A stretch of DNA of 64,000 bases from Octopus vulgaris (Eukaryota). The notes under the pieces were generated by a model. The model ran no database searches. It saw nothing but the letters and a program-made list of their open reading frames with translations, and had not been told where the DNA came from. Where the stretch lies: contig OX597829.1 of NCBI GenBank assembly GCA_951406725.2, forward strand, positions 7,192,001 through 7,256,000. The letters run 5' to 3'. Below are positions 36,743-43,372 of this stretch, piece by piece (the first letter of the stretch is position 1; every line of letters starts with the position of its first letter). A program made the position numbers and the translations under genes.

Positions 36743-36838
<96 letters not shown>

Positions 36839-37015
36839 AAGAAAAATAAGAAGGTTAACAGCAGGCTGTTTCACCTCATACCGAAGGAATTAGAAATGGC
36901 AGTCAAAGACCGTTTTTCCAATTTCTATAAGTGGAGAATCCAAAAACGAAGGCCCTTACGGCTCACATACACAAAACCGGAGTGGCAAATATACGAATTC
37001 AGTCACTTACCGTTA

Positions 37016-37080
37016 ATAGCGGACATATGTTTCTGGATCGCAAACATGGAAATCAGTTTGAATTCCGTCATCGGCGCTAT
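37016..37080 (-). ncRNA. Type I hammerhead (H5, copy 1)
   Basis: Exact reverse complement of 37857-37921. Confidence 0.75.
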
Positions 37081-37564
37081 ATTCGATAGCTTTACTAAAT
37101 GCCACTAGCCCTCACTTCTGACCCAGCGACATCAGATAGTGGGGGGAAGAGTGCAGATGTTAAAACTAAGTGCCGACTGGGAACGTAAATTTTCCCTCCA
37201 AAATTCTGCCATGCGCGCTTTCTGGGTAATCGTAATGGAATGAGGAATCCACATGGTAATTCAATAAAAATGGTAAATAATTTTCCTGTGGTTTATCATG
37301 TAACCAACAATTATTTACCGGTAAATTTCGGTATGTAAATACGACAAATTAATTGTCAAGACCTTTGTAAGGTTCAGTATATAGTAAAGAAAAAATAAGA
37401 AGGTTAACAGCAGGCTGTTTCACCTCATACCGAAGGAATTAGAAATGGCAGTCAAAGACCGTTTTTCCAATTTCTGTAAGTGGAGAATCCAAAAACGAAG
37501 GCCCTTACGGCTCACATACACAAAACCGGAGTGGCAAATATACGAATTCAGTCACTTACCGTTA

Positions 37565-37629
37565 ATAGCGGACATATGTTTCTGGATCGCAAACATGGAA
37601 ATCAGTTTGAATTCCGTCATCGGCGCTAT
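37565..37629 (-). ncRNA. Type I hammerhead (H5, copy 2)
   Basis: Exact reverse complement of 37857-37921; 549 nt from copy 1. Confidence 0.75.
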
Positions 37630-37856
37630 ATTCGATAGCTTTACTAAATGCCACTATGTGGATTCCTCATTCTAAATGGCACTATGTGGATTCCTCATTC
37701 CATTACGATTACCCAGAAAGCGCGCATGGCAGAATTTTGGAGGGAAAATTTACGTTCCCAGTCGCCACTTAGTTTTAACATCTGCACTCTTCCCCCACTA
37801 TCTGATGTCGCTGGGTCAGAAGTGAGGGCAAGTGGCATTTAGTAAAGCTATCGAAT

Positions 37857-37921
37857 ATAGCGCCGATGACGGAATTCAAACTGATTTCCATGTTTGCGAT
37901 CCAGAAACATATGTCCGCTAT
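37857..37921 (+). ncRNA. Type I hammerhead (H5, copy 3)
   Basis: Stem I AUAGCG/CGCUAU; core CCGAUGA (U4C); stem II GGA/UCC plus CAAAC/GUUUG; GAAA; palindromic stem III ACAUAUGU; GUC cleavage after 37915. Confidence 0.75.
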
Positions 37922-38229
37922 TAACGGTAAGTGACTGAATTCGTATATTTGCCACTCCGGTTTTGTGTATGTGAGCCGTAAGGGCCTTCGTTTTTGGATT
38001 CTCCACTTATAGAAATTGGAAAAACGGTCTTTGACTGCCATTTCTAATTCCTTCGGTATGAGGTGAAACAGCCTGCTGTTAACCTTCTTATTTTTTCTTT
38101 ACTATATACTGAACCTTACAAAGGTCTTGACAATTAATTTGTCGTATTTACATACCGAAATTTACCGGTAAATAATTGTTGGTTACATGATAAACCACAG
38201 GAAAATTATTTACCATTTTTATTGAATTA

Positions 38230-38292
<63 letters not shown>

Positions 38293-38311
38293 GTATATAT
38301 ATATATATGTA

Positions 38312-38826
38312 TCTGTGTATCTAGTACATACTTCGCCTTTTAATGTACTTATATATGAATAATATATGGCCTGTGCTAGAACACCGGCGATAATAATTAA
38401 TTTTATTTTATCGCATTTTGACTTTGTTTACATATTTCTCGATAAATTTTGAGCGTTAGACTATATACCAGAAATCCCTAGTTTGACGGGTACGTTCTGC
38501 GTCTGCGCAGTGATCTGATTAGTAAGAAAGAACAAATTAGTAGACGCGCATGCGTCTATTGAGGTGCGATTTCAGAATAACAGGGATCTTACTGACGAGT
38601 CACCCTGAGTAAATAAATTATTTTTATTGCTGAAAAAGACGAAACTGCAGTATAAGATGAACCGAGTTAGTAAAAGTTTTTATTTTCATTTCACTAAATT
38701 TATCAAGCTTCTGTGTATCTAGTACATACTTCGCCTTTTAATGTACTTATATATGAATAATATATGGCCTGTGCTAGAACACCAGCGATAATAATTAATT
38801 TTATTTTATCGCATTTTGACTTTGTT

Positions 38827-38828
<2 letters not shown>
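38312..38828 (+). mobile_element. Retrozyme/pLTR-like element: 398-bp monomer with 119-bp terminal direct repeat, within (TA)n
   Basis: 38312-38430 repeats at 38710-38828 (1 mismatch seen); central canonical HHR. Confidence 0.85.
38586..38658 (+). ncRNA. Canonical type I hammerhead (H6)
   Basis: Stem I AUCUUA/UAAGAU; CUGACGA; stem II GUC/GAC with G10.1-C11.1; GAAA; palindromic stem III ACUGCAGU; GUA cleavage after 38652. Confidence 0.88.
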
Positions 38829-38858
<30 letters not shown>

Positions 38859-38874
38859 GATAGATAGATAGATG

Positions 38875-38946
<72 letters not shown>

Positions 38947-40737
38947 TGTTTCTTTATTAGCCACACAGGGCTGCACACAGACGGGAAAAATTACAAGGTA
39001 GAGCTTTTCATTATGGGGATAAAAAAAGGGGTTTTTGTTTTCGATCAAAAGGGATCGTAAGAGGAAAGAAAGAGGAAAGCAAAATAGGGGGGGGGGATAA
39101 AAATAAAGGGAAAAAGAAAAAATCGATCAATAGGGATCGTTATCACAGAAATGTCAATATAAGGTGTAAAGGGAAGGACAGGTGAGGTGGAAAGAAAAGC
39201 CTACGGAAAAGACCATGGTAACCTCGGTCAATGAAGTTACGTGTTATATTTTTTTTACAAATAAGCAACTCTCTGTATTAATTTTTACGGTTCATAGGAT
39301 CATAGACAAGGTGGCTTCGTCATTCATACGTGCCATCCTTGCTACATTCACCCATCTTTTTTTAAAAGATTCACTAAACAAAACTTGCCTCTCTACTCTC
39401 AATTTCCTCTTCAAGTGATACTTGAAGTTGATGAGAGATTGACCAGAGAGGAAAGTGGTTGTCTCTAATCCTTTCAGACGCGTCCACCAGATACATTCTT
39501 TCTCCATAGCCACAAGTATGATAAAAATAGCTCTTCCTTCCCGTTTGAAAAAAGGAGGCGTGACGATATTAACGATAGACTCGGCTGATAAACCGACACG
39601 TCCCACACGTGACAGCAGTCGTTCGATATAATCCCACAGGTCGGAGATTGTTGGACACTGCACGAGTGCGTGCAGAACGGTTTCGTCGCTCTGACCGCAT
39701 CTCGGGCAGGTCGGCCCCGTGTTTCTCGAGCCATGCCTATAGAGCTTATCCCGAACGGGTAACGCTTTCGGTAGCACTGCCAGGCAAGGGTTCTCTGGAA
39801 GTTGTTCATAGGTCCCGGCCCGAAAGTCGTCTCAAACAGGCGGGTCAGGTATTCCTCGTCGACGCCCAGATTCGCCCCAAGATCGTCGTCGTACCTCCCC
39901 TCCACTAATCCCCTATAGAATGCTTTGGTTGTGTTGAAGTCACCCAGGGTCGACCCGGGACGGCAGAGTTGCTTGAGAGCAACGCGACACTCGCGCTGCC
40001 ATTCGCTCTTCCTCGGCCTCTTTTTGATCCACGACTGCAGTTCTGTCATGGAGACGAGCTGCGGGAAAGCGTGCCTCACAAAGGACGACCACACCTGTTC
40101 ACCGTCGTCTACATAGAGCCTGAGATATCGCTGTCTCGGCGCGTGTCTGCGCATCATCAACCACGGCATGCTCAGCCCTCCTTTTAACGGGTGTTGACAG
40201 CAAATGGATCGTATGACCATCGGGACGCATCCTTTCCACAAGAAGCGGAAGAGAATGCGTTCTAGTTTGGTGATGGTAGGGTCGGGACAAGGTACGACGG
40301 TCAGGCGGTAGTAGATGATGGACGCGATGTACGTGTTTGCCACCTCCGCCCGACCTTTTAGAGACAGTTTCCTTTCGGCCCATTGCCGGACGAGAGTGAC
40401 CGCCCTACACGTTATCTTGTTCCAGTTCTTCTCCATTTGAAGGTGCGGACCGAACCAGATCCCGAGCAACTCAACCGTGCCAGCGTCCCACGACGGAGGT
40501 GCAGGTGGACGGCATGGGCTTGCTTCTCCAGGTGCTTGTTTCTCCAGGTGCCAAGCTGCAAGCCCACTGACTTTTCGCGGTTGATTTTCGCTCCTGTCAC
40601 CGCTTCGTAGTCTTTTAGTGTCTCGCTGACCAGCTCCATGTTCCCGTGGCTTGACACTATGACGGTGACGTCATCCGCGTATGCAGACACGCTCGTCCCG
40701 CATCCCAATTCTCGCGGGATGCCCCTCAGAGTCGCCA
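38947..40737 (-). mobile_element. Tx1/L1-clade LINE, 5'-truncated (RT C-terminal part + zf-RVT)
   Basis: [35 protein letters not shown] and CPRC..DETVLHAL..C motifs; 3' end abuts (GATA)n. Confidence 0.92.
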
Positions 40738-40742
40738 ATAGA

Positions 40743-40995
40743 TAAGTTTCTTTATTGGCCACACAGGGCTGCACACAGATGGGACAAGTTACAAGGTAGT
40801 GCTTTTCTTTTGGGGGATTAAAAAAACAAAAAAACAAAAAAACAATAGAAACAAAAAAAGGTGGCGTAGGTTTTCGATCAAAAGGGATCGTAAAAAGGAA
40901 AAAAAAAGAACAAAAAATAAAATTAAAAAAAGAAAAAAGGGAAAAAAGGAAAAGGAACAAAAGAAAAGAGAAATGAAAAAAAGAAGAAAAAGGGG

Positions 40996-40997
<2 letters not shown>
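40743..40997 (-). mobile_element. Tx1/L1-clade 3' UTR-only copy
   Basis: TTTCTTTATTGGCCACACAGGGCTGCACACAGA nearly identical to the other 3' ends. Confidence 0.8.
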
Positions 40998-41238
<241 letters not shown>

Positions 41239-41240
41239 TG

Positions 41241-43372
41241 ATATGTTTCTTTATTAGCCTCAGAGGGCTGCACAAAGACGGGACAGATTACAAAGTAGAG
41301 CTTTTTTTTATGGAGAGAAAAGGAAAAAAAGTGGGGTAGGTTTTCGATCAAAAGGGATCGCAAAAAGGAAAGAAAAAACGGAAAGAAAAGAAAAAACAGA
41401 AAAGGCAAAAAAACGATCAATAGGGATCGTGTATCACAGTGTCATGATGTAAAGTGTAAAGGATGAAGTAGATAGGGTTTATCCGTGGAAAGAAAAGCCT
41501 ATGTAAAACACCACGGTAACCTCGGTCAATAATGTCACATGTTACCACATTTGTTCGCAATTAGGTAACCCTCTGTTTTAATTTTTTCCGGGTTCATAGG
41601 ATTATGCTCAGGGTGGCTTCGTCATTCATACGTGCCATCCTTAGTACATTCACCAATCTTTTTTTTTAAAACATTCGCTAGACAAAACTTGCCTCTCTAC
41701 TCTCACTTTCCTTTTCAAGTGATACTTGAAGAAGTTGATGAGAGATTGACCAGAAAGGAAAGTGGTTGTCTCTAATCCTTTCAGACGCGGCCACCAGATA
41801 CACTCTTTCGCCATAGCCACAAGGATGATGAAAATAGCTCTTCCTTCCCGTTTGAAGGAAGGAGGCGTGACAATATTGGCGATAGACTCAGCTAATAAAC
41901 CGACTCGTCCCACACGTGACAGCAGTTTTTCGACATAAGCCCACAGGTCGGAAATTGTTGGACACTGCACGAGTGCGTGCAGAACTGTTTCGTCGCTCTG
42001 ACCGCATCTCGAGCAGGTCGGCCCCGTGTTTCTCGAGCCGTGTCTGTAGAGCTTATCCCGAACGGGTAGCGCTTCTCGGTAGTACTGCCAGGCCTGGGAT
42101 CCCTGGAAGTTATCCATGGACCCTGGACCGAAAGTCGACCTGAACAGGCGGGTCAGGTATTCCTCGTCGACGTCCAGGTTCGCCCAGAGCTCGTCGTCGT
42201 ACCTCCCCTCCACTAATCCCCTGTAGAATGCTTGGGTTGTGTTGAAGTCGCTCAAGGTCGACCCGGGACGGCATAGTTGCTTGAGAGCAACGCGACACTG
42301 GCGCTGCCATTCGCTCTTCCTCGGCCTCTTATTGTCCAGGATTGCAGCTCGGTCATGGAGACGAGTTGCGGGAAAGCGTGCTCACAAACGGCGACCACAC
42401 CTGTTCACCGTCGTCTACGTAGAGCCTGAGATGTCGCTGTCTCGGCGCGTGTCTGCGCATCATCAACCACGGCAATCCCAGTCCTCCTTTTAACGGGTGT
42501 TTGTAGCAAATAGATCGCCTGACCATCGGGACGCATCCTTTCCGCAAGAAGCGGAAGAGAATACGCTTCATTTTGGTGATGGTATGGTCGGAACAAGGTA
42601 CGACGGTCAGGCGATAGTAGATGATGAACGCGATGCATGTGTCCGCCACCTCCGCCCGATCTTTTAGGGACAGTTTTCCTGTCGGCTCCTCGCCGGGCGA
42701 GAGTTATCTCGTTCCAGTTCTTCCACATTTGGAGGTCCGGACCGAACCAGACCCCGAGCAACTCAACTGGACCGTCGGTCAAGCGTTCCACGACCGAAGC
42801 GTTGGTGGACGGCATGGGCTTGCTTCTCCAGGTGCCGAGCCGCAAGCCCACTGACTTTTCGTGGTTGATTTTCGCTCCTGCCAACGCTTCGTAGTTTTTC
42901 AGTGTCTCGCCGACCTGCTCGATGTGCTCGTGGCTAGATACTATGACGGTGACATCGTCCGCGTATGTAGATCGCTCGTCTCGCAACCCAATTCTCGCGT
43001 GATGCCCCTCAGAGACGCCAGCTTCCGCAGTAATGGCTTGAGAGTCAATACGTATAGAAGCAACGAGAGGGGGCATCCCTGACGAACCGAACGTGCAATG
43101 TCGAAAGGTCTCGATAGATGTCCATTTATGTGAATTACCGAACGGATACCTCTGTACAAAGCAGTTATCCAGCTGTGGAAGACGGGACCGAAGCCATCCG
43201 CTCTGAGGACAGCCTCCAAGTATCGATGGTCTATCTTATCGAAAGCTTTCGTTTGATCCAAATTGATCAGGGCCCCACCCATGCCAGGTTCGTTAACTAC
43301 CCTGTCTATGATGTAGCGCATCAGATGGAGGTTGTCATGGATGCTCCGGCACGGCACGGTGCACGTTTGCGA
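41241..43372 (-). mobile_element. Tx1/L1-clade LINE, 5'-truncated (RT + zf-RVT), frameshifted
   Basis: RSIHDN, LDQTKAFDKIDH, VRQGCPLS and TYADDVTV motifs; 3' end abuts (GA)/(GATA)n. Confidence 0.92.

Follow-up and report, generated by a model that had tools for sequence, protein, structure and literature searches.

A hammerhead repeat inserted in (TA)n of Octopus vulgaris is probably a 5'-truncated copy of a multicopy retrozyme mobilised by Penelope-type machinery

The insertion at positions 38312-38828 of the window (the whole 64,000-nucleotide stretch of contig OX597829.1 analysed here) is best explained as a 5'-truncated copy of a Penelope-mobilised non-LTR retrozyme, which is multicopy, non-coding and joined to (TA)n by a fixed 3' end. 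Judging from the copies compared below, we give this reading a probability of about 0.8. The 398-bp family to which the insertion belongs likely depends for its insertion on a reverse transcriptase/GIY-YIG endonuclease of Penelope type that is provided in trans. With regard to the template, the insertions suggest about even odds between a circle, or the repeated reading of one monomer, and an uncut linear multimer. The focal element is one of several hundred copies and, being an ordinary truncated copy, its locus alone adds little.

The whole insertion (plus strand, like all its features given below) measures 517 bp, or 1.3 units of a 5'-truncated, non-coding hammerhead element of 398-401 bp. 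One unit length (398 bp, 34% GC) occupies positions 38312-38709, its start being the private truncation point of this copy. It is followed by a terminal redundancy of 119 bp (38710-38828), which repeats positions 38312-38430 at a spacing of 398 with one mismatch (G38386/A38784). The (TA)n target tract on the 5' side (about 38232-38311) is in common with a neighbouring 549-bp element, and the tract on the 3' side, followed by (ATAG)n, lies at 38829-38849. A trimer of the unit was scanned for coding frames and none longer than 40 aa was found (the longest stop-free frame was 37-40 aa); the RT/GIY-YIG ORF of an autonomous Penelope-like element is absent from the unit on the same count. An earlier description made from the letters of the window (the sequence-only reading) had reported a 398-bp unit, a 119-bp repeat, no ORF and (TA)n flanks, and these results confirm it. 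The circular fold of the unit gave a z of -1.5, and a rod-like or unusually stable circle was rejected on this basis. Just downstream of the insertion, two broken LINE copies (RVT_1, zf-RVT), which we take to be Tx1/L1-like, are present on the minus strand at 38940-43235; each has its 3' end against (ATAG)n, one at 38940 and the other at 40738.

A type I hammerhead motif was located at positions 38586-38658, with a predicted cut between 38652 and 38653. It consists of a 6-bp stem I (ATCTTA/TAAGAT), the core CTGACGA, a long-looped stem II (GTC/GAC), GAAA, and a 2-bp stem III (AC-TGCA-GT), with A38652 as N17; the CUGANGA / GAAA / UH core and the three helices of a type I hammerhead are all present. 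Rfam Hammerhead_1 (RF00163) scored 33.9 bits (E 3.8e-6), a tenth of a bit below the gathering score of 34, and hence the motif is missing from the listing at the Rfam cut-off. The canonical hammerhead announced by the sequence-only reading was thus found with its core parts complete. A pairing between loop 1 and loop 2 is predicted, CAGGG (38581-38585) with CCCTG (38603-38607); the sequence-only reading had mentioned neither this pairing nor the variant hammerhead of the 549-bp neighbour. In the family as a whole, 89 laps cover the region and 85 complete motifs were parsed, using a search pattern that itself requires part of the core. The strict canonical form was found in 58 of the 85. Variation occurs at the free positions (A, C or T at N7; C in 71 and A in 14 motifs at N17), and the second pair of stem II is C-G in 59 and T-A in 19. 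Sequence-level prediction allows the CAGG(G) loop pairing in 78 of the 85 motifs, and a corresponding AAGGCT/AGCCTT pairing in 24 of 30 motifs of a sister family that is described below. The hammerhead covaries across subfamilies of the 398-bp family and the motif looks to be under selection, although these counts come from related copies and not from independent events. Altered cores (CCGATGA, TTGATGA) were present in 11 motifs and A-C at the base of stem II in 13, so that cutting may be poor in some sub-lineages.

The genome assembly (2.8 Gb, 227 contigs) was searched six times with the 398-bp unit or parts of it. Each search gave 571-733 first-look candidates, of which the best 40 were scored, and 94 distinct insertions were resolved out of 165 loci; this is a best-match sample and not a census. 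A common 3' end, with terminal letters ...GACTTTGTTT or a close variant, was found in 92 of the 94 insertions. In the focal copy this end (38818-38828) is the putative start of reverse transcription and lies 176 nt after the predicted cut. The corresponding site inside the unit (38427-38435) reads TTTACATAT, a TA-like microhomology with which a nicked (TA)n end could pair. (TA)n flanked the 3' side in 93 of the 94 insertions and was near the 5' junction in 85, whereas the 5' ends were scattered all round the unit. The insertions, made of head-to-tail units of 398-401 bp (GC 0.34), ranged from 119 to 2319 bp, that is, from 0.3 to 5.8 units; the 5.8-unit array is L095 (G000:C19:53546379-53548697). 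This range is smooth, indicating that the focal copy is a mere 5' truncation and that its "1.3 monomers" result from random truncation. The proposal that the terminal redundancy is the footprint of a template survives in part: this is a hammerhead retroelement with a redundancy of Penelope type, but the 1.3-monomer length is no footprint in itself. Circular permutation of the ends around a 398-nt unit, which had also been put forward, is contradicted by the fixed 3' end. The two cases named beforehand as fatal to the earlier proposal do not apply either, given the variable 5' ends, the many copies and the absence of a coding frame attached to any copy examined. No inverted 5' arm or second 'tail' end was detected in any of the 94 insertions.

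The family hence displays the Penelope-type pattern of partial tandems, 5' truncation, a fixed internal 3' end and an AT-rich target. It is at the same time a short, low-GC, non-coding tandem repeat with one hammerhead per unit, multicopy and with members that hold two or more complete hammerheads (10 of 74 insertions are long enough), as are retrozymes. The focal copy carries a single hammerhead, which makes the excision of a monomer by this copy alone impossible. Contigs assembled from four runs guessed to be RNA contained diverged copies of the family, none of them spanning the focal stretch, and cannot separate RNA from DNA; the joints that 'go back 397' in those contigs would be yielded by tandem DNA too.

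The nature of the template was addressed with the 74 insertions reached by 3'-end queries (L290, with another 3' end, was left out), a set in which multi-lap copies have more sampling chances and the long fraction is inflated. Nine of them stop before the predicted cut, two at the cut and 63 beyond it; the site was thus traversed by 63 of the 65 copies long enough to reach it, and 35 of the 74 are longer than one unit. This indicates that the template was continuous at the cut, be it a circle, an uncut multimer or a cut RNA read with efficient jumping, and the earlier claim that it was read across the ribozyme site is upheld. Cut-site passage and end counts together make a cut linear monomer unlikely unless jumping is very efficient. 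Circle and uncut multimer both fit the insertion ends, and a circular template is possible for the 398-bp family.

The strongest rival keeps the same element and enzyme but takes as template an uncut linear RNA made by read-through of a tandem copy in the genome, with no circle, long arrays being renewed by DNA duplication. We place it only a little below even odds. Passage of the cut site fits it equally well, and PMC11167929 proposes a multi-copy mRNA template; in that work on the purified Penelope protein PAc, uncut RNA was the dominant substrate and cleavage was dispensable. The comparison of laps excluded L046, which has another 3' end, as well as L004 and L098, which have internal deletions. 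In favour of a circle, divergence between laps of one array was 1.07% (115 of 10,780 sites) versus a mean of 5.5% between arrays; however, the median nearest-neighbour distance between arrays is 1.3%, and lap homogeneity is therefore a weak discriminator. Further points for the circle are that laps of the same array formed a clade in 8 of 12 arrays (tree judged by eye) and that 18 array-private variants were present in every lap of their array. Another 62 private variants were confined to some laps, some of them to 2 of 3-5 laps. Partial-lap variants (L019, L024, L094, L095) fit heterogeneous multimers or unequal crossover. Laps 2 and 5 of L095 have three variants in common, a period-3 pattern that suggests a trimer as template or the subsequent duplication of three units. 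One pass around a single circle would not produce such variants, which call for either a mixed template or duplication at the DNA level afterwards. The absence of multi-site lap-to-lap differences recurring between independent insertions (only three single-site coincidences and one indel in a TA run recurred) speaks against an uncut multimer and for a circle, and the occurrence of arrays in several subfamilies, mostly clustering by array, also goes against the multimer. Under linear read-through, moreover, daughters are no longer than their parent, and another process must keep renewing the multimers.

One further possibility is that the template was a linear ribozyme-cut monomer and that the enzyme, on reaching a 5' end, jumped to the 3' end of that RNA or of a different one and so produced multimers. 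This is improbable. Insertion ends fell no further than about 6 nt from a cut site in 5 of the 74, but 3.1 were expected (p 0.20) and the site has TA-like microhomology; a pile-up of 5' ends at the cut, suggestive in the first 67 insertions, was accordingly discarded. With 63 of 65 copies passing the first cut, jumping would need an efficiency of about 97%. Besides, no array among those compared changed subfamily between laps; L045 was considered as a template-switch chimera and rejected, its irregularity being a local, later microsatellite-like disruption.

Related and unrelated hammerhead families were present in the same genome. The 549-bp neighbour is an independent two-armed insertion at 36836-38230, with a minus arm at 36836-37656 and a plus arm at 37681-38230. 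Its variant hammerhead (37857-37921; N17 at 37915 on the plus strand and at 37571 and 37022 on the minus strand) has a CCGATGA core, a 6-bp stem I and C-A at the base of stem II, and had no Rfam match listed at E up to 5. The 549-bp family gave 1,079 candidates, with top copies at 95-100%, and has two fixed ends about 128 nt apart, the hammerhead lying 185 nt before one of them. It is a separate family, younger than the 398-bp family. As the sequence-only reading had stated, the two elements that meet across the TA tract are unrelated; their matches, 8-17 nt long, do not rise above chance (best E 0.32). Their co-mobilisation was rejected, because both occurred together only at the window locus among 135 loci. 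In L111, a 549-bp element and a copy of the sister family flank one TA tract, which fits shared targeting; the 398-bp and 549-bp elements have the target tract in common, but not their origin.

The sister family (L111:2215-2580; L136-L165) is about 70-75% identical to the 398-bp unit and gave 1,281 candidates. It has a canonical hammerhead and a 3' end homologous to that of the 398-bp family. In this family, both strands or inverted arms were found in 22 of 29 loci (L160, a duplicate place, was excluded from the counts), and many arms stop at a second fixed site. The difference from the 398-bp family, with inverted arms in 0 of 94 insertions, gave a Fisher p of 1e-18, although it represents one lineage contrast. 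A third related family (L174:2860-3020; L295-L324; L005) also has a homologous 3' end, some copies showing a palindromic stem III that is longer, and its sampled copies are mostly short and one-armed. An inverted repeat was found in 3 of its 30 loci, a short-query sample that is not strictly comparable. A 19-nt segment absent in 84 of 94 parsed ends of the 398-bp family is kept by the third family; its deletion as the reason for the lost inverted arm is unsupported, since the third family has the segment and yet only those 3 inverted repeats.

Candidates for the enzyme were observed in the flanks of the sampled loci, which contain Penelope-type frames, one of them with RVT_1 and GIY-YIG above the Pfam cut-off. 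This frame has CxxxxCxxC before the nuclease and, from the motifs given in the available part of PMC8557442, is read as Neptune-like. The family of this frame, the first of two coding families (L199-L204, L169-L198), has many copies with 98-99% identity, several of them with a 784-aa open frame, and is very young and autonomous. Its copies have a T-rich end in (TA)n, with a short tail present or absent, and a hammerhead-like motif 74 nt before the 3' end in 28 of 30 loci. This putative ribozyme has U3-A8, and GCAA replaces GAAA. In a second coding family (L206-L234), a minimal hammerhead of the U3-A8 variant reported in the available text of PMC4209133 lies 125-127 nt before the end (motif in 19 of 29 loci); an optional tail of ~40 nt was also seen. 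Coding Penelope-like elements thus match the layout of the 398-bp family: hammerhead motif, T-rich end and (TA)n. Three loci in the flanks of Penelope elements (L188, L193, L209) contain further canonical type I hammerheads, which are unrelated.

The same elements bear on the possibility that an unsampled autonomous Penelope-like element gave off the 398-bp copies as solo terminal repeats (pLTRs). The available text of 10.64898/2026.07.22.740005 reports matches to 24 of 57 Xenopus families, with pLTR similarity for 21 Penelope entries among them, and the Penelope sampling comprised only the two or three families inspected, out of 19,052 and 7,545 first-look candidates. However, every sampled array loops back to the same 398-401-bp unit and nothing coding intervenes, none of the first 105 loci had a Penelope frame adjoining the unit, and the element has subfamilies of its own. 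We consider solo terminal repeats a doubtful explanation, with the odds strongly against them. A point against the main reading, mobilisation by Penelope-type machinery, is that no coding partner sharing the unit sequence was found in 60 Penelope loci (two families) or in 6 longer stretches, and that the last 50 nt of the 398-bp family resembled those of the two Penelope families no better than shuffles did (p 0.16-0.61). The last 50 nt of the second Penelope family weakly resemble those of the sister (p 0.008) and of the 549-bp family (p 0.014), uncorrected values from 15 comparisons. Mobilisation by a LINE (such as the nearby Tx1/L1-like or RTE-type elements) in the manner of a SINE is very improbable: a fixed 3' end with 5' truncation is a LINE/SINE pattern too and LINE RT fragments lie just downstream of the focal insertion, but there is no poly(A) or own repeat tail, the 3' end is inside the tandem unit, and the inverted arms of the sister end at a second fixed site, as in the Penelope-like elements of the accessible part of PMC8557442.

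Mobilisation of a retrozyme by Penelope-type machinery could proceed as follows. Copies with two ribozymes would be transcribed into multimeric RNA that cuts itself to monomers of ~400 nt, and ligation of these would probably yield circles. Once the endonuclease had nicked (TA)n, the free end would base-pair at the internal UUUACAUAU site. From there the reverse transcriptase would cross the ribozyme site and keep going around the template until it drops off; microhomology would then let the 5' end anneal to the (TA)n end on the other side. A more specific version holds that pairing with nicked (TA)n primes the rolling reverse transcription of retrozyme circles at a single fixed site within the unit, and that the one-armed family has lost a second-end priming kept by its sister. 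We put this forward tentatively, with the odds somewhat against it; if true, the one-armed/two-armed pair would map the RNA signal behind the inverted arms and tails of Penelope elements.

The element class, and the proposal that Penelope elements copy from circles, are already known. Metazoan non-LTR retrozymes are, in the available part of PMC7229834, low-GC tandem repeats of 150-450 bp with type I hammerheads; RNA circles were demonstrated in mussel for units of 350-390 bp, and Penelope elements were proposed as helpers that copy the circle into tandem cDNA. The accessible text of 10.64898/2026.07.22.740005 presents retrozymes as Penelope derivatives tied to Penelope terminal repeats and leaves the copying mechanism open; 8 of 9 retrozyme dimers tested there failed to cut. 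Ribozymes are unmentioned in the accessible part of PMC13282606. No description of retrozyme end structure or of octopus hammerhead repeats was found in the literature searched, most subscription papers being outside it. By its sequence features, the 398-bp family is a new addition to the known metazoan non-LTR retrozymes, and only the contrast between one-armed and two-armed families may be new. The family offers a simple genomic read-out, with one start site, no halt at the ribozyme cut and random drop-off, and together with its two-armed sister it makes a short natural RNA pair for the questions of the circular template and the inverted arms.

The retrozymes of coral, mussel and axolotl, as far as the available descriptions go, share with the 398-bp family the low-GC, non-coding tandem unit within 150-450 bp, the canonical type I hammerhead, whose stem III has 2 bp and a palindromic tetraloop, the dispersed and tandem copies, and the presence of Penelope elements in the same genome. 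They differ in that circular RNA and cleavage have been demonstrated for them, whereas in the 398-bp family cleavage is predicted and circular RNA possible. The 398-bp family also inserts in (TA)n, ends at a fixed 3' site inside the unit and is randomly truncated at the 5' side, traits undescribed for retrozymes in the accessible parts of PMC7229834 and 10.64898/2026.07.22.740005. By the classes given in the latter, the focal copy, with its one hammerhead, is a monomer derivative and not an active retrozyme.

EN+ Penelope-like elements (PMC11167929, and the accessible parts of PMC8557442 and PMC4209133) have in common with the 398-bp family the partial tandems, the 5' truncation, the AT-rich/(TA)n targets and a reverse transcription that begins within the unit, at a point downstream of its type I hammerhead. 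The available text of PMC8557442 and PMC3846280 likewise describes a bias to (TA)n, tails and inverted arms besides partial tandems. PAc also started internally, downstream of the hammerhead, but at a site non-homologous to the target, whereas the putative start site of the 398-bp family has TA-like homology to it (PMC11167929). Compared with the EN+ elements as they appear in these texts, the 398-bp family is without an RT/GIY-YIG frame, its hammerhead is canonical instead of minimal, and it is without the inverted 5' arm and the second 'tail' end, which are frequent but not universal in Penelope-mobilised elements. The Chlamys elements such as MRC1 (PMC8557442, in its available part) are, like the 398-bp family, non-autonomous and inserted as head-to-tail multicopies by Penelope-type machinery. 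They generally have 3' sequence in common with an autonomous family, whereas no such partner was found for the 398-bp family among the Penelope loci compared; and the Chlamys clade is reportedly without canonical hammerheads, while that of the 398-bp family is canonical.
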